The translations under genes and the position numbers were made by a program. From Heliobacterium chlorum (GTDB lineage Bacteria > Bacillota > Desulfitobacteriia > Heliobacteriales > Heliobacteriaceae), in NCBI RefSeq assembly GCF_014502795.1, contig NZ_JACVHF010000025.1, positions 9,593 to 41,592 of the forward strand: a stretch of 32,000 nt of DNA, given 5' to 3'. Each line of letters opens with the position of its first letter. Positions within the stretch are counted from its first letter, which is position 1. Positions 7,610-29,013 of the stretch are shown here, in pieces. Under the pieces are notes generated by a model. It did no database searches, was not told where the DNA came from, and was given only the letters and a program-made list of their open reading frames with translations.

Positions 7610-9083
7610 ACGCTGTGGATGGAAGCCAATGGAAGGCTGGGAGATCATCTGTGGAAAGTGCGGGGCACGCCTGACTGAGGGGGAGCCTTCGGAAGATACA
7701 CCAAAGGCCCTAAAAGAAGATACCCCAAAAAGTGAATCAAATAGCACTGACGATCTAGGAAAGGGGCCGTCAAAAACGAGTGAAGCGACAGAAACGGCAA
7801 AATCAGATACAGTGAAGACCAAGTCGGATACGAAACAGGATGCAGGAAAACCGGATAAGGGGAAGGTAGAGGCTTCTTCCTCCAAGGGGAGTTCTGCCCA
7901 AACGGAGATATCTGCAACCGTAGACGAGCCGATTATTCTGAAAAGCAACGAGAAAGCCGCCGCAAAGGGTACCAAAGGGCCGGCGTCGGAAAAGAAAAAA
8001 GGCGGGAAGTGGAAGATCGTCGTCTCTGTTATCGTGGCGGGAGCTCTCTTCGGCGGTGGCGGAGCTTACTGGTGGATCAACTACAGCAAGCAAGTCTTAG
8101 CCGAATCGGATTATTTCCGGCAGATGCAGCAGGTCCTCGCGGATATAGACGGTGTCAACGGCGGCCTCATTCAGAGTCTGAACGATGTTCCCTTGAAAAA
8201 CGATGGGAAACTGAATGAAGACCAAATAAGTCAATTAGAAAAGAAACTGGATGAGGCGAAAGACAAACATGGCTCTATGCAAGCACCGCAGAAATATATA
8301 GGAGAGCAAGATACGATCAACGAAGTGATCGCCCTCGAGAAAAATCTGATCAGCCAAGTGGAAGAAGCATGGAAGACCTTATTTAAAGCAAAAAACACCT
8401 ATCAGGAACTCCAGCAAAAGGTGGAAGTGCTCAGGGGAATCAGCGATGTGGACATCCATAACAATTTGAATCAGATCGGCAGTCGGATCAGTGGAGTTTT
8501 CGATGTGCAACGGCCGCCGGTGACCTTAAAATCGATCGCTCAACAGGTGGCGGAAGGCGCAAAAAACAGCGAAGGTAAGTCACCAGAGCCGGGTTCATCG
8601 GAGGCAAAACCGGCTGAACCGTCCGGTAATGGGAATAACGCTGCCGGAAACAATGGTGGAAACGCGGCTGCGCTGGATCCAAAGACCTTCTTCGCGTCCA
8701 TGGACTCGCTCGTGGCACAGTACGATACGGCTAAGGCAAATCTGTCGAAGTCGTTCAACGAATTTAACTATGGAAGACTCGACTGGACCGGTCTGTCGAA
8801 TGCAGTTGCGGAGGGGAAAAAAGTGCGTCTAGCTCTCCAAGCACAGATCGAAGCTCTACCGACGCCTCAAGAGTACCAACCCTTAAAATATGAACTCCTC
8901 GGAGCGCTGAACCAGGCGATCCAGTATTGCGATGCAGTACAGGAAGCAGCTAACTTGGCTTTAAAGGGCAGTGACAATGATTCCCGAGCGAAAATGACGG
9001 AAGCGCAACAGTTGAATGGTTGTATCCAAAAGTTTTATAACCAGTTTCTTAAGGACTATAATGCCAAGAAGGCCGGGGGCTAA
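7596..9083 (+). CDS. Zinc-ribbon membrane protein of unknown function
   Basis: N-terminal CKRCG...CGKCG zinc ribbon, a K/S/T/E-rich linker, one TM helix (WKIVVSVIVAGALFGGGGAYWWI) and a roughly 330-aa helical C-terminal domain. It overlaps the upstream stop by 14 nt. Confidence 0.65.
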   Translation: MLYCKRCGWKPMEGWEIICGKCGARLTEGEPSEDTPKALKEDTPKSESNSTDDLGKGPSKTSEATETAKSDTVKTKSDTKQDAGKPDKGKVEASSSKGSSAQTEISATVDEPIILKSNEKAAAKGTKGPASEKKKGGKWKIVVSVIVAGALFGGGGAYWWINYSKQVLAESDYFRQMQQVLADIDGVNGGLIQSLNDVPLKNDGKLNEDQISQLEKKLDEAKDKHGSMQAPQKYIGEQDTINEVIALEKNLISQVEEAWKTLFKAKNTYQELQQKVEVLRGISDVDIHNNLNQIGSRISGVFDVQRPPVTLKSIAQQVAEGAKNSEGKSPEPGSSEAKPAEPSGNGNNAAGNNGGNAAALDPKTFFASMDSLVAQYDTAKANLSKSFNEFNYGRLDWTGLSNAVAEGKKVRLALQAQIEALPTPQEYQPLKYELLGALNQAIQYCDAVQEAANLALKGSDNDSRAKMTEAQQLNGCIQKFYNQFLKDYNAKKAGG

Positions 9084-14916: not shown

Positions 14917-14948
14917 CAAAATAAGATATTTATACTTACAATCCATTC

Positions 14949-14976
14949 ACGCCTATGCACTCGCATAGGCGTTTTA
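14949..14976 (+). terminator. Hairpin after hrpB (weak U-tract)
   Basis: acgcctatgc / gcataggcgt 10-bp stem, loop actc, then ttttaaaa. Confidence 0.4.
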
Positions 14977-15301
14977 AAACCCATTACACAGGCAAAAGAA
15001 AAAACAATTATAAACAGTTAAATACTATTCGGGCAAGTCTGTTGTAGAATGGGCACTATAAATTTAAATATTTAGGTAAAAGAATAAGTAAAATAGAGTT
15101 TCAAAAAAGGTTGCGTAGAATAATATAAAATAGTAACATGAATTAAATACCTAAAAAAGGTACTTTAAACAAATAAAATGGAATTCCTTTAAAAGTCTAA
15201 AGAAGTAAATAAATTGTAGAATTATTTTATCAACCAGACTTGAACTAAAAATTAACTGTTTAGGTATTACAACACTCCTTTTCTAGACTTGTTGGAGGAA
15301 T

Positions 15302-16237
15302 ATGCAAATGAATATAAGTGTTTCTAAGCTTAAGGAATTGGTAAATGAGTATCTTGATTCTATTAAACTTGAACGAAACTTGGCACTTAAAACCATAAAG
15401 GCATACCAATCAGATTTAAACATTTTGTCAAATTGGATAGAAGATTCACAAGGATGTTTTCAAGAAGAAAGTTGTTTGTGTTATATTCATGAGGTGTTTG
15501 GTTCTAAATTATCTGATGCTACTAAAAAACGAAAAATTATATGTATAAAATCCTTTCTAAATTACCTGATAGACTTAGGTTTTTTGAATCAGACACAGTG
15601 GATGAAAAACAAAAAAAGATTTGTAACTACAAAACGAGTACCGAAAACGTTAAGCGGACATGAAGTAGTACACTTATTAAACGCACCAAAAAATGAGCTC
15701 TTAATTTATAAAAGCAATATTAGAAGAACGATCTGTTATAGAAACGTTGCTATTTTAGAACTACTTTATTCGACAGGAATTCGTATTGGAGAATTAGTAG
15801 AGATTACGTTAAGCGCGCTGGACCTACAGGAAAGGACGTTGCTTATAATGGGAAAAGGTAGGAAAGAGCGGTTATTATATATTTCTAACGAAGAAGTCTT
15901 ACATGCTTTAGAAGATTGGTTAAATGTAAGAAGCCTACTAATTCCCAAAAGTAATAGTTTATACATAAATAGGTTTGGGGACAAAATGTCTATTTTTGCA
16001 GTGGAAGAGGTATTTAAAAAGTACAAAAAAATGACTAAAATCAATCCCAAGGCCACTCCGCACTATCTCAGACATACGTTTGCAACTCAATTGTTAAATA
16101 ACGGAGCCGACCTTCGTGCCGTTCAAGAAATTTTGGGACACTCAAGTATAAGTACTACTCAAATTTACACTGAAGTCTCATTGGCTAGGAAAAAAGATGT
16201 ACTCATAAAATATAATCCACGAAATCGCCTTTTATAA
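15302..16237 (+). CDS. Tyrosine recombinase / integrase (XerC/XerD-like)
   Basis: N-terminal SAM-like domain (LERNLALKTIKAYQSDLNIL). Catalytic signature YSTGIRIGEL (Arg), HYLRHTFAT (HxxR) and LGHSSISTTQIYTEV (His...Tyr). GGAGG lies upstream. The second ATG at 15308 has better SD spacing. Confidence 0.9.
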   Translation: MQMNISVSKLKELVNEYLDSIKLERNLALKTIKAYQSDLNILSNWIEDSQGCFQEESCLCYIHEVFGSKLSDATKKRKIICIKSFLNYLIDLGFLNQTQWMKNKKRFVTTKRVPKTLSGHEVVHLLNAPKNELLIYKSNIRRTICYRNVAILELLYSTGIRIGELVEITLSALDLQERTLLIMGKGRKERLLYISNEEVLHALEDWLNVRSLLIPKSNSLYINRFGDKMSIFAVEEVFKKYKKMTKINPKATPHYLRHTFATQLLNNGADLRAVQEILGHSSISTTQIYTEVSLARKKDVLIKYNPRNRLL

Positions 16238-16245
16238 TTAATAAT

Positions 16246-16270
16246 GTTGTTGACCGGTGGAGTCAACAAC
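16246..16270. promoter_or_regulatory. Inverted repeat (9-bp arms, 7-bp spacer) 9 nt after the integrase stop
   Basis: gttgttgac cggtgga gtcaacaac. There is no adjacent U-tract. It could be a weak terminator or a recombinase core-type site. Confidence 0.35.
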
Positions 16271-16299
16271 TATAATGCAAACGTTTTTTAAAAAATAAC

Positions 16300-16329
16300 C
16301 CTAAAATAACTAAAAATTATTTGGGGGTA
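16300..16329 (+). repeat. Shared leader element, copy 1 (upstream of the TIR gene)
   Basis: cctaaaataactaaaaattatttgggggta matches the reverse complement of 18921-18950 at 28 of 30 positions. The G-run sits 7 nt before the ATG. Confidence 0.85.
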
Positions 16330-16334
16330 AAGGA

Positions 16335-17845
16335 ATGGAAAGCTATGACGTATTTGTTTCATATGCTTCAGAAGATAAACACGATATCGTAGTACCTTTA
16401 GTACTTGAATTGGAAAGAACAACATTAAGGTCTGGTATGACGACTTTAATATTGAATTAGGCGATAGCTTAAATCAAACAATTAACAAAGGCTTATCAAA
16501 TTCAAGGTATGGAATAGTAATCCTCAGTCATAACTTTTTTAAAAAAGAATGGCCTATAAGAGAACTAAATGCATTATTAAGTAAAGAGAAGCTTGGGGAA
16601 AAAGTCATCTTGCCCGTTCTTCATAATATATCTATTGAAGAAATTAAGAATTATTCGTTATTACTAGCTGACAAGGCTGGAGTTCAAAGCAAAAAAGGAT
16701 TGGACGTGGTAGTCAAACAAATAATGGGTGTAGTATCCAAAAAACCAAATTTTCCAGGGGCAGTGCAGGAGTATATTCCTGTACCCAACATGAATTTTAA
16801 TGAGATTATAAAGTACTGCAAAACATCATCGTACGATGGAATAAAGAAAGCTGGAGAACAGTTAGAAAAATTTATTAAGATATCGGAAATTGATTTGGAA
16901 TTGGCTTTTCTTGGAGCCCAGCATGTAGTTAGTCTTATATTAATAGATGTTTACTTTTACCTGTATCAGTCTAGAGAGAGAATAAATAGTATTAAAGATG
17001 TAGAAAATGCAAACTTGTTATGTCAGGTTCTGGGGAAAAATACCTTAGGACAGATTAAAATAATCTACAATTTAGGTGATATAGCCCTCCGTAATAATGG
17101 TTTTTATACAAAAGAAACGATTAATCAAACAGACCTAAATGTATGCAAACAATCTCTAAAAGGAATACTTAATTGGTATTTTAACTCATATTACTCAAAA
17201 AAAACCAATAAGGATAGATTGTGTCTGGTTAAACCCGGAGAATTTTATAAAGAAGATATCCAAGAAATATACACCATAGAATCAAAGTTTTTCGATCCAA
17301 GCTTTATATCTCCTGTAGAAGTTGCGACCCAATGGTATGAACACAACAATAAAACACTAATTGGGGTGAGAGATACTTTAACTGGAAAATTAGTTGGGTT
17401 TTTGTGCACGCTACCTATTACCAATGAGTTGTTTGAAAAAATATCATCCGGTGAATACATTGATACACATATATCAACTGAAGATATCAGGCTATACAAC
17501 TTACCCGATTTTTATAAGCTTTACTTATGTTCGTTATGTGTAGATCCCGAGTATACACATACAAGTGCATTAAGACTTATTTACAGGTCTTTTATTGAAC
17601 AGTTATTCGACTTAGCAGTTTATGATGAAATATATATTACCGATATAGTCGCTGATGCCATCAGCTCCAAGGGGGAAGAGTTATGTAAGTTTATACGTAT
17701 GAAATTTTATAAAAACACATTACATGGTACTAAAATATACAAAGATTCTCTTTTGCCGCCCTCTGTCACATTGAAAGGAAGAGAGGGTTTAAAGCTTATG
17801 AACTATTATAAGATGATTTACGAGCAGTATATAGATTTACTTTAG
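16335..17845 (+). pseudogene. TIR-domain protein (TIR + helical middle + GNAT-like C-terminus) interrupted by a 1-nt frameshift near 16416-16420
   Basis: The frame from ATG 16335 gives MESYDVFVSYASEDKHDIVVPLVLELER, then stops at 16458-16460. The next frame continues NNIKVWYDDFNIELGDSLNQTINKGLSNSRYGIVILSHNFFKKEWPIRELNALL (TIR core with the WxxxEL motif) and runs into track ORF 16610..17845. The C-terminal region (LVGFLCTLPI ... LYLCSLCVDPEY) looks GNAT-like but lacks a clear Q/RxxGxG/A motif. Confidence 0.75.
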
Positions 17846-18915
17846 GGTATACACTCCGTAAGCTCAAAAATTGGATCATTTAATGCGCTTAATTGCGATG
17901 ATACTAGCCGAATGATATCATCTTTATCTTTTTCAAATAAACTAATCATTGCTCTGTTAAGCTCGCAATATTCATTAATATGATTGTTTGAAAATTTTAA
18001 ATGCATTCTGCCACAACGACCATAACACATTTCAAAGCAACTCTTTTGAACACAGATTGACTCTTTACATGTAAAGCTTCCGAAATTTACCAATGTGCTA
18101 ACACTGCCTATGTAAAACTCACTGTTGTTCATTTCTTCTGAGCAACTATAACAATTTCCATTTGTCTGAACATAAACGCTACCGTAATTAAAACCGCATA
18201 ATATACCACTAGATTTTTTAATTTTCATTAGTAGTCTTACCATGCTCATAAAAGGTATTATGTTTAGCATACTACCTTTTCTTAAACTATTTATCCAAAC
18301 CTGATATAGTAATTTAGTCTCATAGATATACGTTTTTGAAAAATCCTCAAATCTATTAAACGTGTAACAGTTCTCTATTTGCCAATGAACGTAATCAAAG
18401 AAATTTAATACTTGCATTACGTTGGTATAAACACTTACTTTTTCGGTTATTGTGAGTCTACCAAGAATTGTTATGTTGCTCAATTGTCTGATGTAATTTA
18501 TGTTATTTATAATCTTAGCAAAATAACTATTGTATAGACCGTACGAAGGTATTTTCTCATAGTTAATTGATATTATTATGCGATTAAGCGCTGAAAGAAT
18601 TTCTAAGGGTATTTTGTCTAAAAGTATACCATTAGTATGTAATATATATTTTACAGGCATTGTTTCGACGACAAAACCAATTTCTTGTATAACTTTAAAG
18701 ATATAGTCGTAATCCAATGTTGGTTCGCCGCCAAAAAAGAGAATATTTATTTCATTATCGTTATAAGTTTTTTGTGTTTTTATTATAAATTCTTTTAACT
18801 GCCCTATTGAGTATGATGGCTTTTCTGGATAACAGTTATTCTTATTGATATTTACACCGGAGCAATAATTACAATCCAAATTACAGTTGTTTGTTACGAA
18901 AATATAATATTCCAT
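17842..18915 (-). CDS. Radical SAM enzyme with a C-terminal SPASM/twitch-type Cys-rich domain
   Basis: CNLDCNYC (CX3CX2C), FFGGEPTL (GGE motif) and HTNG. The C-terminal cysteines are CGFNYGSVYVQTNGNCYSC ... CKESICVQKSCFEMCYGRCG. The likely start is ATG 18915 (MEYYIFVTNNCN), 7 nt after a G6 run. The track start 18930 is a TTG inside that run. Confidence 0.85.
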   Translation of the reverse strand: MEYYIFVTNNCNLDCNYCSGVNINKNNCYPEKPSYSIGQLKEFIIKTQKTYNDNEINILFFGGEPTLDYDYIFKVIQEIGFVVETMPVKYILHTNGILLDKIPLEILSALNRIIISINYEKIPSYGLYNSYFAKIINNINYIRQLSNITILGRLTITEKVSVYTNVMQVLNFFDYVHWQIENCYTFNRFEDFSKTYIYETKLLYQVWINSLRKGSMLNIIPFMSMVRLLMKIKKSSGILCGFNYGSVYVQTNGNCYSCSEEMNNSEFYIGSVSTLVNFGSFTCKESICVQKSCFEMCYGRCGRMHLKFSNNHINEYCELNRAMISLFEKDKDDIIRLVSSQLSALNDPIFELTECIP

Positions 18916-18920
18916 AAGAT

Positions 18921-18950
18921 AACCCCCCAATAATTTTTAGTTATTTTAGG
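18921..18950 (-). repeat. Shared leader element, copy 2 (upstream of the radical SAM gene)
   Basis: The reverse complement reads cctaaaataactaaaaattattggggggtt. The first 22 nt are identical to 16300-16321. Confidence 0.85.
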
Positions 18951-19050
18951 ATATAAACTCTAACAAAAATATTTTTGAGTGATTGTTTTAATTGGGTTTC
19001 TTAATTATTCTCAGTTTTAAATCTCATTTATTTTCGGGGTTTGGTTGTTG

Positions 19051-20922
19051 TTAGAGCCCTAAGCGATCTAATATCTTCAATGCTAAGGTTGTGTAATCTA
19101 GGCTGAGAAGAAGTTCTCTATTTTCTAACGTGTTCATGTTGTTTATGATCTTGACCCAACCTTGAGAATCTAATTCTGAAGCAATTTCAGATACACGACC
19201 TCCACACGAACCAATTAAATAGACGGGTAAATTTTTTCTCAATGCCATTTCAATCTCTTCATCGACGCCAGATAATGTTCCGTTCGGTTTACTTCTTCCA
19301 CCTAGTGCAACCAGACCTAATGCATTTTCATCATTAATCATAGCCTGACGCATGACCGTCAGGCTTTTCTCCCGATTACCATCGATGATTTTGGTTGGAA
19401 TAACAGTCGAATATTGCTTAAACGTTTCAATCTCTTTATCTGATACGAAATATTTAGAAATATAAAGCCGAATAGCTTCTTTATAATCATAAGGGCAGCG
19501 CCTTTTGGCTAAGTCAAAAATCAATGGTTGAAAGGTAGGGTGACCACCAAAGATTACCCTACCGCCACAGTCAAGAATTGCCTGAGTTAGGGCATGAATT
19601 GCCGTCGTTAAATTCTGTTGATATATAGGTCCACACATGGGAAATGAACCGGAAATAATAACTCCGTTCTTTTTGTTCCCATTTCTTGGTGGGACGCTTA
19701 TGTACTTGTGTATATTCGTTAAATACTCGTCTGCTGAGTCAACATAAAAAAAACCCGGAGAAAAGTTTTTAATACATGTCCCCTGAGAAGGTGCAAGTAA
19801 AAGGGCCGCATCTACAAGGTGACCATGTTTAGGATGTGCTATGTAGCCCATCGCTTGTATATTTTTGTCGAACAACTGAATATCGGAATCTTCTGGATGC
19901 CTACCATAAAACTGAACAAGATGAGTCATAGGACGTTGAGGGTATCGAAAACCTCTTCGAGGGAGTTGAACCTCATAAATAAGATTCTTTTGATCTAACT
20001 CGATAATATTGGCACCTTCAAAGCTTATAACAGACTTTAACCGATTAATTCGATCGAAGACGTTATGACCGGATTCCATACAAACCTTAAAGGCAGTCTC
20101 GATTATACTTTCTATAACTTCAGGATTTAGAGTTTTGTCGGAACTAGACAAATCACCTAGATGTAAATGCGGTTCGCGAGCTGGACGTACCGGTAGTTCT
20201 GATCTTCCGTCTACAAGACCAACTTTTATCCAAACAATGGGTATATTTAGTGCGAGGGCTAACTGTAGCTCCCGAGCAACCCATTTAGATTCTCCCGCTT
20301 TAGGAGTATCTAGAAAAAGAACAACGTCACTCTTACAAAGGTTTCGTTCTATAACTTCCTGTGCGTCTTCCCCTACCAGTACCTCAGTAAGATCTCGAAA
20401 TGTATGTTCAGCCCTTATGCATAATTCGCGGTAAAGGGTAGCTGCAAAAATCTCTCCATCAGCTCGGCGATGACTCAAAAAGAAACACATACGTGTCCTT
20501 GATAGATTAGGTTTTAGCTTAACTACAACGACTCGTGCCAATACGACAGCAATAGTTTCGAGACTAGAGGAAGTTAAAGAACGTAAGTTGATTTGATCAA
20601 CAACATCGAAGCTTTGCCGAGTGCTTATTAATGTGTGAGGGGTTCGCGTGTCCCTATCGAGGGCAACTGGAATTACTTCTGTGTTTGTATTTATACCCCT
20701 CGTTAAAACTTCAGTGATTAAAGAATCATAGTTGTTATCTGGTCGGTTAAAGATAATAAGTACATCATTATCAGTGAACTGGACACTCTTCAAGACATTC
20801 TCAGAACAAAGCGAAACGACCTCTACATATTGTTCTAATTCAGATCTAAGCGCGTTGAAAAACCTAATTGCCGTGACGATAGAACCCAGTGTCTTCTTGG
20901 GATCTATGAGATAAGCCTTCAT
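19051..20922 (-). CDS. Multidomain TIR + SLOG(LOG/DprA-like) protein, 623 aa
   Basis: Central TIR-like block: MCFFLSHRRADGEIFAATLYRELC ... SDVVLFLDTPKAGESKWVARELQLAL ... IPIVWIKV. C-terminal Rossmann-like block with Gly motifs: GVIISGSFP, GGRVIFGGHPTFQPLI, LVALGGRSKPNGTLSGVDEEIEMA, YLIGSCGG. These resemble SLOG/LOG signatures. GGGAGGA SD lies before the ATG. Confidence 0.7.
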   Translation of the reverse strand: MKAYLIDPKKTLGSIVTAIRFFNALRSELEQYVEVVSLCSENVLKSVQFTDNDVLIIFNRPDNNYDSLITEVLTRGINTNTEVIPVALDRDTRTPHTLISTRQSFDVVDQINLRSLTSSSLETIAVVLARVVVVKLKPNLSRTRMCFFLSHRRADGEIFAATLYRELCIRAEHTFRDLTEVLVGEDAQEVIERNLCKSDVVLFLDTPKAGESKWVARELQLALALNIPIVWIKVGLVDGRSELPVRPAREPHLHLGDLSSSDKTLNPEVIESIIETAFKVCMESGHNVFDRINRLKSVISFEGANIIELDQKNLIYEVQLPRRGFRYPQRPMTHLVQFYGRHPEDSDIQLFDKNIQAMGYIAHPKHGHLVDAALLLAPSQGTCIKNFSPGFFYVDSADEYLTNIHKYISVPPRNGNKKNGVIISGSFPMCGPIYQQNLTTAIHALTQAILDCGGRVIFGGHPTFQPLIFDLAKRRCPYDYKEAIRLYISKYFVSDKEIETFKQYSTVIPTKIIDGNREKSLTVMRQAMINDENALGLVALGGRSKPNGTLSGVDEEIEMALRKNLPVYLIGSCGGRVSEIASELDSQGWVKIINNMNTLENRELLLSLDYTTLALKILDRLGL

Positions 20923-20972
20923 AGCTTTCCTCCCACTACGATACGACCTAAATTTATTTTAGTTTAATTTGA

Positions 20973-20995
20973 CCAAAATTCGTGTCGAATTTTGG
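20973..20995. promoter_or_regulatory. Perfect palindrome (10-bp arms, 3-bp centre) in the divergent intergenic region upstream of the TIR-SLOG gene
   Basis: ccaaaattcg tgt cgaattttgg, 51-73 nt upstream of start codon 20922. It has operator-like geometry. Confidence 0.4.
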
Positions 20996-21272
20996 CATGA
21001 ATATTTTATTAAAATAATATTTTGCCGTAAAGTCTTTGCTAACATATAATAGTAAATTATATAGTTACATACATAGCCATAAAAGCCGAGTGAATGCAAG
21101 CGGTTTTAATTACTGCAAATTTTTGTTCCTCTATAGGTCCGTTATAGTAGAAGAAATTTTAGCTAATCTCTTGACAAAAAGGATTCAGCACATAGTCATA
21201 GAAAAACTAAATGATCGGATTATTGTTTGCCGATTATAACGAAATTTGTTGTTGGACAATGGAGAATTACTG

Positions 21273-22331
21273 ATGAACGAAGATATTCTCAATCATATTT
21301 CTCAAATGCTAAAAAACCACAAATTAAAGACGATGGAACTCTCTCTTTTGCAGGATACCATGCCTGGAAACACCGATTATCGAAGCTTTGCGTCAATCAT
21401 CAATAAACTCATTGATGATGGGGTACTGACACCGATCAAAGCAAAAGGGACGAATCGGAAAACTTCGCCCCTGCCCAACAAATTCACTATCGGGCACGGA
21501 AGAGTTCACGAAGAACACTATCAGAGGCTCAAACGTGCCCGGTTGCGGTTTCATTCGTCGATTGACTTATCAAGTTATTACCGACTGAGCCCCGCCGTTT
21601 GGGAAAAGGATCAGGATTCACTGGCCAAGCTAGACGCCTACCTGCAGAAGCAGGGCTTACCGCAAAAAGCCGCTTCCCTACAGGAACGTTCTTTTGAAAT
21701 TTTTGATCATGAGAAATGGTTGGAAAGCAAAGAAGGGACCGATTTCTTAGCCCGAGTCGGCCTGTCTCTTGAAAGGCTCTCGGTCGTTCCCGTCCCCGAT
21801 CCCTGCATGTTTGCGATGCAATCCGAATTGTATAAAGATCCCCAGCGCCTGTGTCATGAACATTTGATTGTAGAAAATAAGACGCCCTACCATGTGCTCA
21901 TGCCATTGATGCATCAGCAACGCGTCTTCACGACGCTGATTTACGGCCAGGGCAAGGCGATCATTTCAACCCTACAAGGGTTTACGACTCAGGCTGGTTT
22001 TTGTTTAGGTGAACAGAACCACACCTTTCACTACTACGGCGATCTAGATCATGAAGGCATCAGCATTTGGTACAGCTTGCAGAAGCGTTACCCGATTCGC
22101 TTGGCCCTGCCTTTTTACCGCGCCTTACTGCAAAAAGAGTATGCCATCGGAAAAGAGAACCAGAGGCCGAATCCGGAAGCTTTCGCCCTGTTTTTAACGA
22201 ACTTTTCATCACAAGAACAAGCAGCGATTCAATCGATGATGGACCAAGGTGGGTACTTACCCCAAGAGGCCTTGTCGGCGGAAGAGACAGCGAATATATG
22301 GAGGAACCAGCATGGATCAGCGTCTAGCTGA
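21273..22331 (+). CDS. JetD/MksG-like Toprim-domain protein (putative nuclease subunit) with an N-terminal winged-helix-like region
   Basis: HLIVENKTPYH (Toprim Glu) and HYYGDLDHEGISIW (DxD) in the C-terminal half. GGAG lies 8 nt before ATG 21273. The track start 21246 is a TTG. Confidence 0.7.
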   Translation: MNEDILNHISQMLKNHKLKTMELSLLQDTMPGNTDYRSFASIINKLIDDGVLTPIKAKGTNRKTSPLPNKFTIGHGRVHEEHYQRLKRARLRFHSSIDLSSYYRLSPAVWEKDQDSLAKLDAYLQKQGLPQKAASLQERSFEIFDHEKWLESKEGTDFLARVGLSLERLSVVPVPDPCMFAMQSELYKDPQRLCHEHLIVENKTPYHVLMPLMHQQRVFTTLIYGQGKAIISTLQGFTTQAGFCLGEQNHTFHYYGDLDHEGISIWYSLQKRYPIRLALPFYRALLQKEYAIGKENQRPNPEAFALFLTNFSSQEQAAIQSMMDQGGYLPQEALSAEETANIWRNQHGSASS

Positions 22332-23826
22332 CTTGACGAGAGGCTTTCGCGATCGCATCAACCGCCTGGCCATCTTTGATCCCCTCTACGAACTAGGGCG
22401 AAAGGTCAGCCGGGACCAGCAGAATAACCCCATCGACTGGTTCAGCCTCGGCATGGTCAGCCTGCTCTTTTTCTTCGAAAGCATGCTGACGCGGCGACGG
22501 CAGACCTCGGTGAAAGATTTGGCGGCGTACCTAATGGAGCTCAACCAGGAAGGCCCCATCAGCGCCGATGAAGCGGGATTTCAAAAAATCGCCCGGGAGA
22601 TTATCGACGCCTTCCGAGACGCCTCGGGTAAGCGAAAAGAAAAAGTATTCTTTAACTGGGAAACGCGCCAGGAGGACCGGATTTATTACTCTCTCATTGA
22701 AGTGAGCGACTCCGACTTGAGCCAAAACATCCAGAATTACCGCTTAACCGAGCGAGGGCTGGAACTGATCTTTGCAACGAAAGAGTATTTCAGTGAGTTT
22801 CATCTTTCCATCAGTCAATTGGTGCTCCGGAAACAGCTCGAAAAGGGCGAGCTAAATGGGGCCTTGCGCGAAATCGATGAGATGCGGATCGCTGTGGAAC
22901 AACTGCAGCGGAAAATGATTCAACTCAATCTGGAAGTGCAGCGCAACATCATTTCCCACGAGACGCAAAAGAAATACACGGAGATCCTCGATGCCATCCA
23001 TGGACGCCTAACCCGCGAAGAGGAAGAATTCCGTGAACTCTACGGCTTTGTCTTGGAGAAAAAACGGAACTTGGAATATGAGATGACGGCGGAGCGCGAT
23101 ATCCGGGCCTACAACCTGCTCATCCAGATCGCGAAAGAACTCGATGAGGTCCACCGTATGCACCGCGCCCTTTTGCATGACAGCATCACCCTCAAACGCA
23201 AGGCCTTGCATGCGGCCAAGGAATCGCTCTACCATGCCGGGCTCATCGCCTTCAACTTCAACCAGGATGTTACCTCCCGCGCCGTGACCTCTCCTCTACC
23301 TGCCTCTGCCTTGGAAGGGCTGATCAAACCGCTGCTCGGCCCCTATGTGGAGCGAAATTGGTCTCCCTTAGACGTTTTTGCGCCCCAACGAACGGGAGGC
23401 GATGACGAGGGCGAATGGGAGATCCCCCATTTTGCAGAAGCCGATGACCGCACGGAAGGCCCGTCCTTTCTCCAACAGCAGCGGCAAAACTTTCATCGGC
23501 TCAGTCAAGAACTGCAAGCCTATCTGGGAGAAAAAACCGAAATCCGCCTGTCTGAGTTCCTGGGATACCTGCAGGCCGACCCAGAACGGGCTCCTTTCGT
23601 CGAAAACCGGTCGCTCTATGATTACTGGTTGCTCCTTCACCAGCATACACCGTTACAGATCCATCAAGGACGCAATGAAGACGGAAAGAGCTATCTCCTC
23701 GACGACATCATCGCCGCTTTTTCCCACGTGGAAGAGATCGAAGTGCAGGAAGAACCGGAACTGCTACAGCCCCATCCCCGCTATGAGATCCAAGAAATGA
23801 TCTTACGATTGAAGGTGAACGCGTGA
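22312..23826 (+). CDS. Predicted kleisin-like subunit (JetA/MksF-like), 504 aa
   Basis: Assigned by position, size and helical/coiled composition, not by a motif I can recognise. GGAGG at 22300-22304 lies 7 nt before ATG 22312. It overlaps the upstream stop by 20 nt. Confidence 0.5.
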   Translation: MDQRLADLTRGFRDRINRLAIFDPLYELGRKVSRDQQNNPIDWFSLGMVSLLFFFESMLTRRRQTSVKDLAAYLMELNQEGPISADEAGFQKIAREIIDAFRDASGKRKEKVFFNWETRQEDRIYYSLIEVSDSDLSQNIQNYRLTERGLELIFATKEYFSEFHLSISQLVLRKQLEKGELNGALREIDEMRIAVEQLQRKMIQLNLEVQRNIISHETQKKYTEILDAIHGRLTREEEEFRELYGFVLEKKRNLEYEMTAERDIRAYNLLIQIAKELDEVHRMHRALLHDSITLKRKALHAAKESLYHAGLIAFNFNQDVTSRAVTSPLPASALEGLIKPLLGPYVERNWSPLDVFAPQRTGGDDEGEWEIPHFAEADDRTEGPSFLQQQRQNFHRLSQELQAYLGEKTEIRLSEFLGYLQADPERAPFVENRSLYDYWLLLHQHTPLQIHQGRNEDGKSYLLDDIIAAFSHVEEIEVQEEPELLQPHPRYEIQEMILRLKVNA

Positions 23827-24587
23827 CGACCGTCGTTGAACATGCTCATATGGAACTGGCCTTTCATCTATATGCACAATTGCTGCAAAAGGGGCAGTTG
23901 TCCCAAGACCAGCCGGGGTTTCGGGAATATATCGCCCAGAGTGAAGTACGCAGTTTGGTCGACACCTTTGCCACCGAGATGGACAGCGTCGTCGTCAAGA
24001 CCTCAGACCACCTCTACTTGGTGCCCAAGTCAGGCCAGTCCCCCTTCGGCATGAAAAATGCCTACATCAAAAGAGAGTATCTCGGCTACCAGGCGACCAA
24101 CATCGATCTTTACATGATGTACTTTGCCATCATCGTCCTCTTCGGCGAGTTTTATGACAGCTATGAAACGCCGGAGGCGACGCGGGACTTTTTACCGATC
24201 GGTGAGTGGATGAGCAAGATTCGGGAGCGACTCGATACGATCAAGGAACAAGGGGAAGAACAGCTAGATCAGATCGAAGGCGAGACCGAGTGGAACTGGG
24301 TCGGCGTGATTCACTTCTGGGATTCCCTCGACGACCTTAAAGAGACGGCCAAGCGGCAAGATACGAAGCAGCAGAGCCGGCTCGGCTTTCTGAAGCGAGT
24401 CATCCGATTCCTCGACGCCCAGGACCTGGTGCAAGATCAGGGCAACGACGAACTGAAACTGACGGAAAAAGCCAAGATCATCGTCCAACGGTACTACATG
24501 GACCGGGAATACAACCGGGACCTCTTGGCCTATATGTATCAGTTCGATCAAGTGAAAGGGAATGATCCCGATGCCGGCCATCGCTAA
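23823..24587 (+). CDS. Predicted KITE-like subunit (JetB/MksE-like), 254 aa
   Basis: Assigned by position and size. The GTG start overlaps the upstream TGA (GTGA), which suggests translational coupling. Confidence 0.45.
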   Translation: MTTVVEHAHMELAFHLYAQLLQKGQLSQDQPGFREYIAQSEVRSLVDTFATEMDSVVVKTSDHLYLVPKSGQSPFGMKNAYIKREYLGYQATNIDLYMMYFAIIVLFGEFYDSYETPEATRDFLPIGEWMSKIRERLDTIKEQGEEQLDQIEGETEWNWVGVIHFWDSLDDLKETAKRQDTKQQSRLGFLKRVIRFLDAQDLVQDQGNDELKLTEKAKIIVQRYYMDREYNRDLLAYMYQFDQVKGNDPDAGHR

Positions 24588-27500
24588 AATCCGCCTGACG
24601 AACGTGCAGTATGAACAGGGCAATAAACGGTACACGGACCAGACCTTCCGGTTTGACGGCCATAACGGCGCCATTCTGCTCGAAAACGGAGGAGGTAAAT
24701 CGGTCCTTGTGCAAACGGCCGCCCAGGCGGTCATCCCTAATGGCATCCTGGCCGATCGCAAACTCCGTGACACCCTCGACGTGTCGGCGGCGCCGGCCCA
24801 TATCGCTGTAGAGTGGATCCTCAACGACAAACCGCGACAGTACGCCCTGACCTGCGTCACTTTTTATATGGGTAAAGAGGGACTCGAATATCTGCTCTAT
24901 GCCTATGACTACCCAGCCGGAGACAAGGGGCAGATCGAAAACCTCCCTTTTGTGCAGAAAGACCGATCGGGCAAACGTCCGGCCAGTCGCGAGGAGATCA
25001 AAGAATACTACCAAAGCATGTCCTACAGCCACATGAACGCCAAAACCTTCAGCACGAAAAAAGAGTACCAGGCATATCTCGAAGAAACATTTCAAATCGT
25101 CCCCTCTGAATGGGAAGCGATTCTTAAAATCAACGGTGCAGAAGGCGGCGTAGAAAAGTTCTTTGAACAGTGTGCCACGACGGGCCAACTGGTCGACCGG
25201 CTGCTCATCCCGGTGGTAGAACAGGGTATGGCCGGTAACGGCACGAAAGATTTTGCCCGGCTCTTCGATAACCACCGGCAGCATTTTCGCGAATATCTGG
25301 AACTGACCGAACAGATTAAGGAATATCAAGACGTGATCTCCCGCGTCAGCCAAGTGGTGGAACGGTACAGCCGCTTTGACCGTGAGGAGCAGGCCTATCA
25401 ATCGCTGCAAGGCCGCGCCAAGGGGCTGCTTCTGCATGTCGATGAGGAACTGGCCCAGTCGGTAGAGGCCCAGGAAGAATTAGACCGAAAAGAACGGGCC
25501 TTGCAAGAGCAGGAGAAAAGGCTGCATCAAAAAGCCCTTTCCCTAGATATCGCTCGCCTACAGCGAGAACGATCCGAGGCGGAGGAAAGGCTCTACCGTT
25601 GTGAGCAGCGGCGTGATGAAAAACAGGCAGAGCACCGCGAGAGCGCAAGCCTGCTGGAATCGTTGAAACTGGCCGCGCTATTGGAACAACTTCAAGATAA
25701 GCAAACAGACCTAAGCGCATACCAGCGCCAACTGGAGGAACTGGATCATTCGCCCGATATCGCCCATCTGCAAATCGAACGGGCACAGGTTCTCTCCCAA
25801 CTGCGCTATCACTTCGACCGGCTGGAAGAGGACTTCCGTCAACTGCAAGATCGGGCCCAGGCGATTTTATCGGAACTGGCCCAGGAAGAGCAGACGAAGA
25901 AAAAGGCACTCCTCGAAGCAGAGGAAAAGAGGAGAAGCCTACTCGTTCTCCGCACAGAGACTCGGACGCATATCGAGAATAAAGAGCAACAGATGCAGCG
26001 GATCGTCCAGGCCATCTTGCACGATCCGCTGCGGGAGCAAGTGGAGGAACAGCTTCCCCACTGGCAGAAACGGTCTATCGCCCTCGGTGAAGATGTCAAT
26101 GGGCTCATCGCCGATATGGGACGCTGGCAGGCCGAGAGTGAAGAACTGCATCGCCAGGAGAAGCAAATCCAGATAGAATTAACTGCCCTCCGCCAAGATC
26201 TCACCAAGTGGGAGACGGAACTGTCGACCGTCGATAAACAAGCGCAGCAACTGCTCGAACGGTTGCACCTTCTTTCCCCGGAAGACCGGGAGCTCAACTC
26301 TATCTATAAACGGCAGCCGACGATCCGGGCGCGCCTCCATGAAGCCAGGACATTATTGGAAGAAGAGAAGAACCAACAGATGGAGCAGGAACGGATCCTG
26401 CTGCGCTTTTATGACCTTTATAAAGACAGCCAACTGTTCACGGCCGATCCGGGGCTCGAACGGCAGTGCCGACGGTGGCAATCAGACATCCCCTCCTTAC
26501 AACTGGGCACGGCCTTCCTGCAAATCCTTCTGGAAGAGAAGCCCCAGTTGACCATGAGCAGACTCTATGAGCACTATCCCTTCTGGCCCATCACCTTGAT
26601 CTGCGGGGCTGCTGATCTGGGCAAGGTCAAGAAGCTGGTCGAAGGTGCCGCCCAGCAGTGGACCCACCCCGTGTTCATCTTGACGGAGCAGGAAGCGCAG
26701 GCCCGTTGGACGACCCCCTTTGAATTGCCGGCTGTCCACGTATCACCGGGCCAATGGCCGCAGATCTCAGAATCGATCCCTTTTCAGGCCTGGCTGGAAG
26801 AGAGCCGTCAAAAAGCCGCCTTCGTCGTCGAGGAACGCAAAACGCTGGAAGAAAAGCTTCGCCAGTGGCATGCGCTGGCTGATGCCGTCGACCGCTTTTG
26901 GCAGGAATATGATTTTCAAGCGATCTATTTACCGTTAAAAGAAAAGATCAGCCAAGGCAAAGGGCGTTTGGAAGAACTGCACAATGCCGTCGCTCATATC
27001 GATGGTCAAAAGCAGAACTTGCAGCGCCAGTTAAAGGAAGGCGCCAGCAAGAAGATTCGCTGGGAAGCCGAACAGGCTGACGTGACGGAGCGCTACCGGA
27101 AGGGGCTTGAATGGAAGCGACTTCAAGAAGAGCGTAACCGTCTGACGGAAAGGCTGGAAGGACTGAGCGCCGACGAGAAAGGGGTCGCCCAAGAGGTAGA
27201 CGAACTCAAGACACAGATGGACGATCTGGAATCGAAGCAGCGCCAGCAGGAAAAGCGCACCTGGGAACTGGACGAGAAGCTAAAAGATATTCGCAACGAC
27301 GTCGATAACAAGGAAAGCCAAAACAGCGCTCCCGTAAAAGCCGAGCTCTCCCTCAACCTCTTAAAAAGCCGCAAGGCCGAGTTGACTGACAAACTACAGG
27401 GCATCCAGCAAAACCGCAAATCCTTGCAGGCGATGATCGGTAGCGCAGAGAAAGATGTGCACCGGTTGGAGCAGCAGATTCGCAGACAGCGGGAACAATT

Positions 27501-29013
27501 CAGCGACATCCTTCAAGGGGAAATCACCTTCCCACCGAATGGGGAAGAAGAGATTGAGCGTCTGACCGAGACGACCCGGTCCTTAAAACGAACCCTCGAT
27601 CGGTTGAACCAAGAGCTGGCCGACGCGCAGACGAAGGCCACGGTGGCCCGGACGCGGGTGGCGGCCAAAGAAGAGCAATTCTTCAAGACCTTACCCGATG
27701 CGGCCATAGTAGACTTTGGTAGGCAGCCCCTCGAAGAGGTCGAGACTCTCCTTCATCAAGAATCACAGCGCCTGAGCCAAGAGGGGGTGCAGGTAAAAGG
27801 AGAACGACGGCGATTAGAACAACTCTATGCGGAATTGAACAGTGTCAAAAAAGCCTTGGAAGTGGCCCGGGGCGTCCATAAATTCGGGCGAGAAAGCATC
27901 ACCGCCATATCGCTGAAGGAAGAGGACTTGCAGGAGTATCCGTATAAGCGGCTGGCCTTCACGAACGAACTGTCCCTGCAACTGGAGAGAGCGCAAGAAA
28001 AGGTGGACCTGGAGCGCAAAATGGTGGAGCAGGAACGAAAGCGTTTTGAAGCCTACTGCCTCCAAGAGATCAAGGATGAAAAAACGAAGCAACAAGCCGT
28101 CAACGGCATTCGGTTAAAAGACAGCTTCAGTGAAATCCACGATTGGGGATTGCGACTGCAAGAGCGGATCGAAACGGCCATCCGGATTGCCGAAGAGAGC
28201 TTGCGCAGCCTCGATGAGCAGGTGCAGATTTTTATCAACCATCTCCATTCCCACCTGGTGCGGATCTGTGAAGAGTTGAAAGCGATTCCCAAGATGACCG
28301 CCGTCAAAGTGGAGGAGAAACGAAAAGAGATCTTCGACTTTACCGTTCCCCACTGGCCGGAACTAGAAGGGAAGACGAAGCTCCGCCAACATCTCGAATG
28401 GATGATGAAGGCACTGGAAAATGAGAAGTACCGCAACGAGCAAGGCCTGGAAGATACGGCGAAAGTGCAGGCCCAGATCGAAAGCTGGCTCCACCCGAAG
28501 CAACTGCTGCAAGTGGTCTCCTCGAGCCAGGAGATCAAAGTACGCTGTCGGAAGGTCACCAATGATAACCGTGTCAGCAGCGCCTTGACAGACTGGCCGA
28601 CGAGTGAAAGGTGGTCAGGCGGAGAGAAATGGAGCAAAAACATGACCCTCTTCCTGGGCATTCTCAACTACCTCGCTGAAAAACGCCAGCATATTCGCAA
28701 AGGCCAGGGAAACCACCGCGTCGTCATCCTGGACAACCCCTTTGGCAAAGCCTCCAGTAGCCACGTCTTAGGTCCCGTCTTCTTCATCGCCCAACAGTTG
28801 GGTTTCCAAATGCTCGCCCTCACAGCCCATGCGGAAGGGAAATTCCTTCGCGATTATTTCCCCATCATCTATAGCTGCCGGCTCCGCCCGACGAAAGATC
28901 CCTCCATCGCCATTGTCGAAGCGCAAAAAGAGATCCGCTATGCTTATTTTCAGGATCATGCGCCAACGAGCCTGGAGCGCTTAGAAGAGGTAGAACAGTT
29001 GACGCTGCTGTAG
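24562..29013 (+). CDS. SMC/MukB-like ABC ATPase (JetC/MksB-like), 1483 aa
   Basis: N-terminal head with LENGGGKS (Walker A). Two very long E/Q/R/K/L-rich coiled-coil arms flank a central globular hinge-like segment (about aa 640-760). C-terminal head with WSGGEKW (signature-like) and HRVVILDNPFG (Walker B position). The start overlaps the upstream gene by 17-26 nt (ATG 24562 or 24571). Confidence 0.8.
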   Translation: MIPMPAIAKIRLTNVQYEQGNKRYTDQTFRFDGHNGAILLENGGGKSVLVQTAAQAVIPNGILADRKLRDTLDVSAAPAHIAVEWILNDKPRQYALTCVTFYMGKEGLEYLLYAYDYPAGDKGQIENLPFVQKDRSGKRPASREEIKEYYQSMSYSHMNAKTFSTKKEYQAYLEETFQIVPSEWEAILKINGAEGGVEKFFEQCATTGQLVDRLLIPVVEQGMAGNGTKDFARLFDNHRQHFREYLELTEQIKEYQDVISRVSQVVERYSRFDREEQAYQSLQGRAKGLLLHVDEELAQSVEAQEELDRKERALQEQEKRLHQKALSLDIARLQRERSEAEERLYRCEQRRDEKQAEHRESASLLESLKLAALLEQLQDKQTDLSAYQRQLEELDHSPDIAHLQIERAQVLSQLRYHFDRLEEDFRQLQDRAQAILSELAQEEQTKKKALLEAEEKRRSLLVLRTETRTHIENKEQQMQRIVQAILHDPLREQVEEQLPHWQKRSIALGEDVNGLIADMGRWQAESEELHRQEKQIQIELTALRQDLTKWETELSTVDKQAQQLLERLHLLSPEDRELNSIYKRQPTIRARLHEARTLLEEEKNQQMEQERILLRFYDLYKDSQLFTADPGLERQCRRWQSDIPSLQLGTAFLQILLEEKPQLTMSRLYEHYPFWPITLICGAADLGKVKKLVEGAAQQWTHPVFILTEQEAQARWTTPFELPAVHVSPGQWPQISESIPFQAWLEESRQKAAFVVEERKTLEEKLRQWHALADAVDRFWQEYDFQAIYLPLKEKISQGKGRLEELHNAVAHIDGQKQNLQRQLKEGASKKIRWEAEQADVTERYRKGLEWKRLQEERNRLTERLEGLSADEKGVAQEVDELKTQMDDLESKQRQQEKRTWELDEKLKDIRNDVDNKESQNSAPVKAELSLNLLKSRKAELTDKLQGIQQNRKSLQAMIGSAEKDVHRLEQQIRRQREQFSDILQGEITFPPNGEEEIERLTETTRSLKRTLDRLNQELADAQTKATVARTRVAAKEEQFFKTLPDAAIVDFGRQPLEEVETLLHQESQRLSQEGVQVKGERRRLEQLYAELNSVKKALEVARGVHKFGRESITAISLKEEDLQEYPYKRLAFTNELSLQLERAQEKVDLERKMVEQERKRFEAYCLQEIKDEKTKQQAVNGIRLKDSFSEIHDWGLRLQERIETAIRIAEESLRSLDEQVQIFINHLHSHLVRICEELKAIPKMTAVKVEEKRKEIFDFTVPHWPELEGKTKLRQHLEWMMKALENEKYRNEQGLEDTAKVQAQIESWLHPKQLLQVVSSSQEIKVRCRKVTNDNRVSSALTDWPTSERWSGGEKWSKNMTLFLGILNYLAEKRQHIRKGQGNHRVVILDNPFGKASSSHVLGPVFFIAQQLGFQMLALTAHAEGKFLRDYFPIIYSCRLRPTKDPSIAIVEAQKEIRYAYFQDHAPTSLERLEEVEQLTLL

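Follow-up and report, generated by a model that had tools for sequence, protein, structure and literature searches.

We analysed a 32,000-nt stretch of the Heliobacterium chlorum contig NZ_JACVHF010000025.1 (positions 9,593 to 41,592 of the forward strand, referred to below as the window) and focused on an AT-rich island within it. The island spans positions 14917-21245 and has a GC content of 27-40%, compared with 52% for the host flank; a preliminary description of the window had already recognised an AT-rich island here. TIR-SLOG, the radical SAM enzyme and TX (all introduced below) match NCBI records of Heliobacterium chlorum at 100%, and an exact-sequence look-up of TIR-SLOG returned no entry. 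It holds four genes: a tyrosine recombinase, a protein with a TIR domain and a GNAT-type domain that we call TX, a radical SAM enzyme, and a protein in which a TIR domain and a SLOG domain are fused (TIR-SLOG). The first three genes have 30-33% GC and the TIR-SLOG gene has 40%. The preliminary description missed a 41-nt inverted repeat around two of these genes and left the adjacent recombinase unconnected to them. All positions below are those of the window, and the features on which the analysis is built are the following:

15302-16237, plus strand: XerC/D-like tyrosine recombinase of 311 aa, the proposed invertase, reading toward the cassette
16300-16340, plus strand: left inverted-repeat arm, with the core AAATAACTAAAAATTATT at 16304-16321, a GGGGG ribosome-binding site and the ATGGAA start of TX
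16335-17845, plus strand: TX, with a TIR domain, a helical linker and a GNAT-fold domain (503 aa once repaired)
17842-18915, minus strand: radical SAM/SPASM enzyme of 357 aa, convergent with TX and overlapping it by 4 nt
18910-18950, minus strand: right inverted-repeat arm, with the core at 18929-18946, a GGGGGG ribosome-binding site and the ATGGAA of the radical SAM gene
19051-20922, minus strand: TIR-SLOG, 623 aa, with an N-terminal alpha/beta domain, a TIR domain, a middle alpha+beta domain and a SLOG domain

The two arms are 85% complementary over 41 nt, form the longest inverted repeat of the island and enclose precisely these two genes, TX and the radical SAM gene. In each arm CCTAAAATAACTAAAAATTATT is followed by a G-rich ribosome-binding site and ATGGAA, and a 22-nt core region is perfectly conserved between the two. 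The 18-mer core has exactly two copies in the window, in inverted orientation, where 0.08 are expected if up to three mismatches are allowed, and a search of the window for a third core site found none. From the end of the core to the ATG we counted 14 nt for both genes; the distance is 13 nt in the related locus L086 and smaller in L087 and L109. Among 22 distinct repeat sequences 21 contained ATAA-N7-TTAT, with the wider consensus AATRAAGG ATAA N7 TTAT C, and the site in locus L080 has a perfect 11-bp arm pair around an asymmetric 7-nt spacer. Arms of 11 bp with a 7-nt spacer are the classical core layout of tyrosine recombinases, and we take the ATAA/TTAT inner arms around a short central region to resemble those of dif. 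Two tandem ATAA-N7-TTAT cores per arm were encountered at L105 (108-220) and L126 (7918-7964), from which alternative crossover points might follow.

The recombinase matched the Pfam family Phage_integrase with an E-value of 3.3e-44 and also Phage_int_SAM_1, and its RHRY-type motifs can be read as IRIGEL, HYLRHTF, LGHSS and IYTEV. It is not a true XerC, because its score of 235 bits against the NCBIfam XerC model is below the cutoff of 335. Neither the island nor the cassette is flanked by a tRNA gene or by att-like direct repeats. As direct repeats at the island edges, a tRNA gene and a third core were all lacking, we rejected the recombinase as the integrase of the island.

The radical SAM gene starts with the ATG at 18915 (MEYY...), 135 nt after the TIR-SLOG stop codon, and MEY is invariant in the family. 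For its product we obtained a Pfam Radical_SAM match with an E-value of 3.9e-10 (40.6 bits; the cutoff is 29.5). The NCBIfam SPASM family TIGR04084 aligned over the full length at 153 bits, which is below the cutoff of 225, and the solved structures of CteB and anSME align with the protein from end to end. The CX3CX2C motif corresponds to C11, C15 and C18, all of them invariant. The SPASM motif CX2CX5CX3C is present family-wide, and the conserved auxiliary-cluster cysteines are at positions 240, 255, 258, 288, 291, 297, 301 and 317. The Radical_SAM match and the structural alignments agree with the preliminary description, which had placed a radical SAM enzyme with a SPASM-type Cys-rich C-terminus 135 nt downstream of TIR-SLOG.

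Hundreds of relatives of this enzyme were found, chiefly in gut and other metagenomes, and some of their 90%-identity clusters contain more than 100 member sequences. A more distant branch (35-38% identity; L114, L118, L122) occurs without TX; there the gene lies between saccharopine-dehydrogenase-like and glutathionylspermidine-synthase (preATP-grasp)-like genes, in a context that looks biosynthetic. Three other identities were considered for the gene or its cassette and rejected. A viperin was dismissed since the PADLOC pVip match covers residues 5-118 only and the NCBIfam viperin model gave 37 bits against a cutoff of 180. An operon for a ribosomally synthesised and post-translationally modified peptide (RiPP) was dismissed since the 4-nt overlap between TX and the radical SAM gene leaves no space for a precursor peptide and there is no RRE domain. 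A phage-borne element was dismissed since a scan of IMG/VR with the radical SAM profile gave generic N-terminal radical SAM matches only.

TX has a Pfam TIR_2 match with an E-value of 6.5e-21, and its catalytic-type Glu (KEWPIRE77L) is invariant in the homologues. The preliminary description had mentioned a frameshift in the locus, which we confirmed in TX at ∼16409-16420. Once repaired, TX aligns from Met1 to intact homologues of 490-505 aa; the NCBI annotation gives an N-truncated product of 473 aa with an ATT start and without the first TIR strand. For the C-terminal domain the Pfam GNAT family Acetyltransf_1 reached an E-value of 0.023 and 15.4 bits, which is under the cutoff of 20.7. The domain is predicted to have a GNAT fold (AlphaFold predicted local distance difference test, pLDDT, ∼90), and Foldseek matched it to Naa50, Ard1, AANATL and AtaT with E-values between 7e-6 and 1e-4. 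Compared by eye in the alignment, the loop at the acetyl-CoA position (Q/R-x-x-G-x-G/A) reads P-x-Y-x-x-T-x-A-F and the glycines are missing. The proposal of a second, convergent TIR protein with helical and GNAT-like regions thus stands, with a sub-threshold Pfam match and a predicted fold for the GNAT-like part. No Pfam family matched the helical-plus-GNAT region of repaired TX above its curated cutoff. This region (16700-17842) belongs to a family of ∼695 50%-identity representatives, and many of its relatives stand alone as proteins of ∼200 aa or ∼360 aa without a TIR domain.

Cassette linkage and inversion in related loci

To describe the context of the radical SAM gene we used the neighbourhoods of its relatives together with 80 further metagenome loci; 44 family loci extend far enough to be informative. 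In 39 of these 44 the radical SAM gene and a TX homologue, with the same TIR and the same C-terminal domain, form a convergent pair, although the metagenome loci include near-identical repeats from the same strain and this count, like those that follow, overstates the number of independent observations. A recombinase homologue (31-51% identity) abuts the radical SAM/TX pair at every locus with both flanks visible. It is located beside the radical SAM gene in 8 loci and beside TX in 8, and it is aimed into the cassette in 16 of the 19 loci that have a clear recombinase homologue. The radical SAM gene, TX and the recombinase are linked as a cassette. In 38 of 39 cases the radical SAM/TX cassette was found beside genes other than TIR-SLOG, such as an AAA_21 ATPase/RloB pair, GmrSD, a reverse transcriptase or toxin-antitoxin genes.

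The orientation of the cassette in L080, L083 and L085 is opposite to that in L081, L082 and L084. Between L080/L083 and L082 the flanks are 99.8-100% identical and the central 3343 bp are inverted. L081 displays the same inversion with flanks that are 97.6-98.6% identical, and the strand switch of the gut-contig alignments falls inside 58-nt repeats. Another indication comes from seven metagenome contigs that are exactly cassette-sized and have both ends in the repeats: an assembler arrives at such contigs when both orientations coexist in a sample. Among the relatives the cassette is thus found in both orientations. Most relatives have perfect or near-perfect repeats, compared with 85% complementarity for the arms of the window. 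At L107, L120 and L105 the repeats reach further out and take in promoter-like sequence on either side. Some cassettes contain extra genes: an APH-type kinase and a xylose-isomerase-like TIM barrel (L093, 9086-10757), an adenylate/guanylate-cyclase-type protein (L116, 1197-1790) and a 174-aa protein without a Pfam match (L080, 7102-7626).

We also detected two other convergent, TIR-containing cargo pairs which are flanked by recombinase homologues and the same core, both in TIR-SLOG loci. For the first pair a P-loop protein is opposite a 365-aa TIR protein (L057 versus L069, L075 and L076). For the second pair a KamA-like radical SAM enzyme and an ATP-grasp enzyme are opposite a 961-aa TIR-NTPase-TPR protein (L047 versus L068; also L062 and L038). 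The KamA-like enzyme is unrelated to the SPASM radical SAM enzyme. Both pairs occur in both orientations relative to the TIR-SLOG operon, and cassettes with other cargo are found at the 3' end of TIR-SLOG operons in ∼9 of 79 loci, besides the window and L086. Across these cassettes one arm repeatedly encodes a TIR protein and the opposite arm an enzyme. The KamA-like cargo lies at 12441-17483 in L047, 9869-14847 in L068 and 9929-15419 in L062, between repeats with the core GGATAATATATGATTATCC.

The TIR-SLOG gene and its surroundings

TIR-SLOG matched Pfam TIR_2 across residues 147-235 (E-value 3.5e-12) and the Pfam SLOG family LD_cluster3 across residues 438-586 (E-value 2.1e-19). In the segment SKWVARELQ the residues S212, W214 and E218, the last being the Glu of the WxxxE motif, are invariant in 23 homologues of 33-48% identity. 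The AlphaFold model has a pLDDT of 84 and its top Foldseek matches in the PDB are Thoeris ThsA structures (6lhx, 8btp, 8wc0). For the isolated ThsA SLOG domain 7uxs Foldseek reported a template modelling (TM) score of 0.68 and a root-mean-square deviation of 4.8 over ∼218 columns. We can see that the domain calls of the preliminary description hold for this protein: the TIR_2 match and the invariant E218 support a TIR-like domain with the WxxxEL glutamate, and LD_cluster3 together with the ThsA-like predicted fold supports a C-terminal SLOG domain. The stated lack of a SIR2 domain agrees with the searches of Pfam and PADLOC, which gave no SIR2 match. Profile and structure searches likewise support the TIR, SLOG and radical SAM assignments across the locus. 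That TIR and SLOG are joined in one polypeptide is also correct; the arrangement is not an unrecognised one, since the protein is, judged from sequence comparison, a fused relative of the type III Thoeris protein TIR4 and its SLOG protein.

For the context of TIR-SLOG we collected 79 genomic loci that encode relatives and searched their open reading frames by BLAST with the window proteins, namely the radical SAM enzyme, TX, the recombinase, JetD and JetA. ThsB-type small TIR proteins are neighbours of TIR-SLOG in 47 of the 79 loci, and the other usual neighbours are further TIR proteins and a small membrane protein. The flanks are good in 50 loci; one or more extra TIR genes lie within 3 kb in 39 of these and none in 11. 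In the window a tblastn search for ThsB-type and the other usual neighbour families gave zero matches, and the only other TIR gene near TIR-SLOG is the frameshifted TX inside the cassette. TIR-SLOG of the window is an orphan without its usual ThsB-type partner genes.

The preliminary description had proposed a single TIR/SLOG/radical-SAM module and had suggested looking for co-occurrence of the three genes across genomes. This proposal was not supported: homologues of the three genes are unlinked elsewhere. A radical SAM homologue within 8 kb was found in none of the 79 TIR-SLOG loci. A full-length TX was also absent from all 79, two of which showed similarity to the TIR domain only. Conversely, TIR-SLOG adjoins the radical SAM gene in one of the 44 informative radical SAM loci (L086). 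As a partner of TIR proteins the radical SAM enzyme is confirmed for TX, with which it is conserved, and not for TIR-SLOG. This partnership, as the preliminary description had supposed, matches no named system in PADLOC-DB 2.0 (a version that dates from 2023), in NCBIfam 2026 or in the literature searched.

Two other arrangements around TIR-SLOG were observed. The closest homologue (48% identity; L193, 1-13866) is encoded on a Tn7-like element, in a four-gene TIR / ThsB / TIR-SLOG / ThsB operon; on one side of this operon are Tn7-like tnsA, tnsB and tniQ, on the other a type I restriction-modification system. In Clostridia an operon at L040 (7363-12429) encodes Nmad2, TIR-SLOG, a thymidylate-kinase-like protein, a 5-hydroxymethyldeoxyuridine (5-hmdU) DNA kinase and a thymidylate-synthase-like protein. 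The Nmad2/TIR-SLOG operon also occurs in L042, L044, L047, L048, L050, L057, L065, L072 and L086, and it unites a Thoeris-like gene with enzymes of DNA thymidine hypermodification.

The remaining features of the region are the following:

14917-15301, no strand: AT-rich spacer at the left island edge, directly after the hrpB stop codon, 27% GC
16246-16270, no strand: perfect hairpin with a 9-bp stem immediately downstream of the recombinase gene, flagged by the scan as a terminator-like site of the minus strand
18951-19050, minus strand: spacer of 100 nt from the TIR-SLOG stop codon to the right repeat, 25% GC
20923-21245, no strand: divergent intergenic region between TIR-SLOG and jetD, with promoter-like sites on each strand; the AT-rich DNA has its right edge here
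21246-29013, plus strand: type III Wadjet operon jetD-jetA-jetB-jetC, context only and outside the module

Host genes of ∼52% GC extend to hrpB (58% GC), which ends at 14916. On the other side of the island the Wadjet type III set is complete according to PADLOC, with E-values of 1.9e-104 for JetD3, 3.6e-177 for JetA3, 7.6e-95 for JetB3 and 0 for JetC3. The Wadjet-like operon and the defence-island context of the preliminary description are both confirmed. The jetD gene has 47% GC compared with 53-55% for jetA, jetB and jetC, and it overlaps jetA by 83 nt. A 495-aa open reading frame in the host part of the window (7596-9083) had no Pfam match with an E-value below 1e-4. An Rfam scan of the window for structured RNA, such as a shared leader, gave zero matches. 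By eye we noticed a promoter-like TTGACC-N15-TATAAT at 16250-16276, which overlaps the hairpin and lies outside the left repeat; its 15-nt spacer is beyond the rules of the promoter scan, and we take it as a weak indication. Between TIR-SLOG and the right repeat the scan found no terminator-like site, and read-through from TIR-SLOG into the cassette is therefore possible.

Interpretation of the locus

We consider it probable that the locus consists of two separate immune-type modules side by side, the invertible cassette with TX and the radical SAM gene on the one hand and TIR-SLOG on the other. Positions 16300-18950 would form a 2.65-kb cassette in which the adjacent recombinase recombines the two inverted dif-like cores (ATAA-N7-TTAT). 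The core lies 14 nt from each ATG, so no promoter fits between and the promoters of both genes must be outside the invertible DNA; flipping must therefore swap the upstream regions of TX and the radical SAM gene. The outcome would be a gene-swap phase switch with one gene behind recombinase-side DNA and the other behind TIR-SLOG-side DNA. As the window is now arranged, TX comes after the recombinase gene, and TIR-SLOG precedes the radical SAM gene. The recombinase presumably flips the cassette in the Heliobacterium chlorum strain as well, and from the geometry and the one promoter-like site seen by eye we would predict that flipping switches expression between the arms. The AbTir-like TIR domain of TX may act on NAD+, either by cleaving it or by forming a product derived from ADP-ribose. 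The radical SAM enzyme, which is similar to CteB and anSME and has no peptide-recognition domain, may modify a protein, perhaps TX, or a small molecule. Both arms would then be parts of a phase-variable anti-phage or abortive-infection module. For TIR-SLOG the analogy with ThsA, TIR-STING and TIR-SAVED suggests that the SLOG domain would sense a TIR-made nucleotide and then activate its own TIR domain as an NADase.

Several findings weigh against this explanation, among them the inflated locus counts mentioned above. The Heliobacterium chlorum strain was seen in one orientation. The promoter scan detected no promoter outside either arm and gave fewer sites than in shuffled sequence. For the relatives with outward-extended repeats and promoter-like sequence on both sides (L107, L120 and L105), flipping might leave expression unchanged. 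Alternate expression of two tightly co-inherited genes is also hard to reconcile with joint action. What suggests a defence role for the cassette is its domain content and the island context. Finally, both cassette genes carry changes: TX is interrupted by a -1 frameshift within the A-run GGAAAGAAC, and the radical SAM copy of the window has K291 in place of a cysteine conserved at 95%, with a unique C293 two residues on. Given these two changes the local cassette may be non-functional.

The last point leads to a different explanation, in which the local cassette and the orphan TIR-SLOG are decaying, non-functional remnants of horizontally acquired DNA and neither switching nor immunity takes place here. 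The frameshift strips the first TIR strand from any TX product, K291 affects the auxiliary-cluster cysteines, the repeat arms have 85% complementarity where those of relatives are mostly perfect or near-perfect, and TIR-SLOG has no ThsB-type partner. However, the recombinase, the radical SAM gene and TIR-SLOG are all full-length open reading frames, the 22-nt core region is intact in both arms, and 11 of 50 TIR-SLOG loci are likewise without extra TIR genes. The frameshift comes down to one base within an A-run and may be a true pseudogene mutation, a recent change or a sequencing or assembly error. We therefore regard decay as possible though somewhat unlikely. A closer union of the genes, in which TIR-SLOG, the radical SAM enzyme and TX form one system (with a signal that is made by a TIR protein, modified by the radical SAM enzyme and read by SLOG) or in which the cassette is at least a switchable accessory arm, is more doubtful. 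The window and L086 share the adjacency, and TIR-SLOG of L086 belongs to another subfamily (30% identity), so that the adjacency must have arisen at least twice. Furthermore, cassettes with the same recombinase and core and with other TIR cargo end ∼9 of 79 TIR-SLOG operons, which read into the cassette, no terminator-like site separates TIR-SLOG from the radical SAM gene, and with its usual ThsB partner missing TIR-SLOG has TX as the sole other TIR gene nearby. Against this, all 79 TIR-SLOG loci are without a full-length TX and without the radical SAM gene inside 8 kb, 38 of 39 radical SAM/TX cassettes are away from TIR-SLOG beside unrelated defence genes, and the cassette genes differ from TIR-SLOG in composition (30-33% versus 40% GC). 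Defence genes cluster in islands anyway, which makes adjacency weak evidence. We keep a looser functional tie between cassette and TIR-SLOG as a minority reading because cassettes recur at the 3' ends of TIR-SLOG operons.

The recombinase and its repeats could also serve mobility or the exchange of cargo, by cassette exchange or island integration, with inversion as a side product that has no regulatory role. At least three unrelated cargo pairs share the same recombinase/core family, the cassette is situated in foreign AT-rich DNA, and some relatives have the outward-extended repeats with promoter-like sequence on both sides. Nevertheless both orientations are found between identical flanks, inverted sites favour inversion rather than excision, neither direct repeats nor a tRNA gene occur at the island or cassette, and no family member was found among the IMG/VR viral contigs, which makes this explanation very unlikely in our view. 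We give the least credence to a non-immune role of the radical SAM/TX pair, be it in the synthesis of a secondary metabolite or RiPP-like peptide or as a toxin-antitoxin-like addiction pair. It is true that the closest solved relatives of the enzyme, CteB and anSME, modify peptides or proteins, that genes for an APH-type kinase, a xylose-isomerase-like TIM barrel or a nucleotide cyclase are found in some cassettes as well, and that the distant radical SAM branch lies beside ATP-grasp-like and saccharopine-dehydrogenase-like genes. However, the 4-nt gene overlap leaves no space for a precursor-peptide gene, an RRE domain is missing and CX3CX2C begins at residue 11, TIR domains that keep the catalytic Glu are typically found in immune proteins, and the neighbours are defence genes (AAA_21 ATPase/RloB pair, GmrSD, reverse transcriptase, Wadjet).

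The explanation by two separate modules can be extended to the cassettes with other cargo. Recombinase-flipped TIR/enzyme cassettes might constitute a new phase-variable immune class, the enzyme being a SPASM radical SAM enzyme, a KamA-like radical SAM enzyme with an ATP-grasp enzyme, or a P-loop protein. The enzyme arm would make or modify a moiety that the TIR protein couples to ADP-ribose, or it would modify the TIR protein, and type III-like Thoeris (TIR-SLOG) operons would be able to take up the cassettes as arms that can be switched. We offer this extension tentatively and consider it unlikely as a whole.

If the switch proves real, programmed inversion, which is known to diversify the specificity of restriction-modification, BREX and DISARM, meets TIR signalling here, a prominent subject in bacterial immunity at present, with whole TIR genes and their radical SAM or other enzyme partners under a gene-swap switch. 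TIR-based immunity could then be phase-variable and hedge bets against the cost of NAD+-depleting effectors. The cassette would also offer a natural and compact genetic switch between two states, the core site of which is defined and ∼20 bp long, and it seems to be common in gut metagenomes. Radical SAM chemistry would be a recurrent partner of bacterial TIR proteins, involving two unrelated radical SAM families, and a partnership of this kind is part of no described Thoeris type. To type III Thoeris the analysis adds a widespread form with fused TIR and SLOG.

Comparison with known systems

We compared TIR-SLOG to the Thoeris types. Type III Thoeris (Pseudomonas aeruginosa L0872; van den Berg et al. 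2024, as tabulated in the preprint bioRxiv 10.64898/2025.12.03.692087) comprises several TIR proteins and a SLOG protein, and its signalling is described as uncharacterised. TIR-SLOG matched the NCBIfam models of both ThcB4 and ThcA, in each case under the cutoff: 82.3 bits against 220 for ThcB4 (NF058526, residues 46-277) and 78.1 bits against 110 for ThcA (NF058525, residues 436-586). Over 86 residues its TIR domain shares 36% identity with the TIR4 domain as published, and a ThsB-type neighbour of a TIR-SLOG relative is 68% identical to TIR3. In contrast to type III Thoeris, the TIR4-like and SLOG parts are fused in the window into one protein with an extra middle domain, and the separate TIR partner genes, present in relatives, are missing. 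With ThsA of type I Thoeris TIR-SLOG shares the SLOG fold and the proposed logic of a sensor domain fused to an NAD+-consuming domain. However, the effector is TIR instead of SIR2, the Pfam SLOG subfamily is LD_cluster3 and not STALD, and the PADLOC ThsA match was weak (E-value 5.6e-4) and restricted to the SLOG region.

The TIR domain of TX is 36-46% identical to those of AbTir, PdTIR and BtpA in structure-based alignments (42-46% for AbTir and PdTIR) and has kept the catalytic Glu; it differs from them by its fusion to a helical linker and a GNAT-fold domain. For radical SAM enzymes a role in phage defence is known from the prokaryotic viperins and from the HXS system, in which a radical SAM enzyme matures the effector (PMC13128918). 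The enzyme of the window is likewise in a defence-island context. It differs from viperin in being SPASM-type, and the viperin match is confined to the N-terminal radical SAM core. In comparison to HXS (PMC13128918), the window has no gene for an HxS-repeat substrate.

The recombinase has its XerC/D-like character in common with the Xer/dif system. It scores under the equivalog cutoffs of both XerC and XerD and lies in foreign DNA, the central region of its sites in the window is 7 nt, and the two sites are inverted and flank cargo.

Our searches of the literature on TIR with radical SAM, on invertons with TIR or defence and on Thoeris with inversion found no description of this cassette, and a recombinase-flipped TIR-GNAT/radical-SAM cassette is apparently undescribed. 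The closest parallels are the 'epigenetic invertons' of type I restriction-modification hsdS, where a tyrosine recombinase swaps genes or gene parts (PMC7672463), and the gene-altering programmed inversions in BREX and DISARM (PMC9881135); TIR-GNAT/SPASM radical SAM cargo is not reported in either paper. All of these have an adjacent recombinase, inverted repeats around oppositely oriented coding sequences, both orientations in populations and a defence-system setting in common with the cassette. The differences are in the position of the repeats and in what is exchanged: the repeats of the cassette are located in the 5' leader and start codon instead of within the coding sequence, and the cassette would swap the upstream regions of whole, unrelated genes rather than specificity domains.

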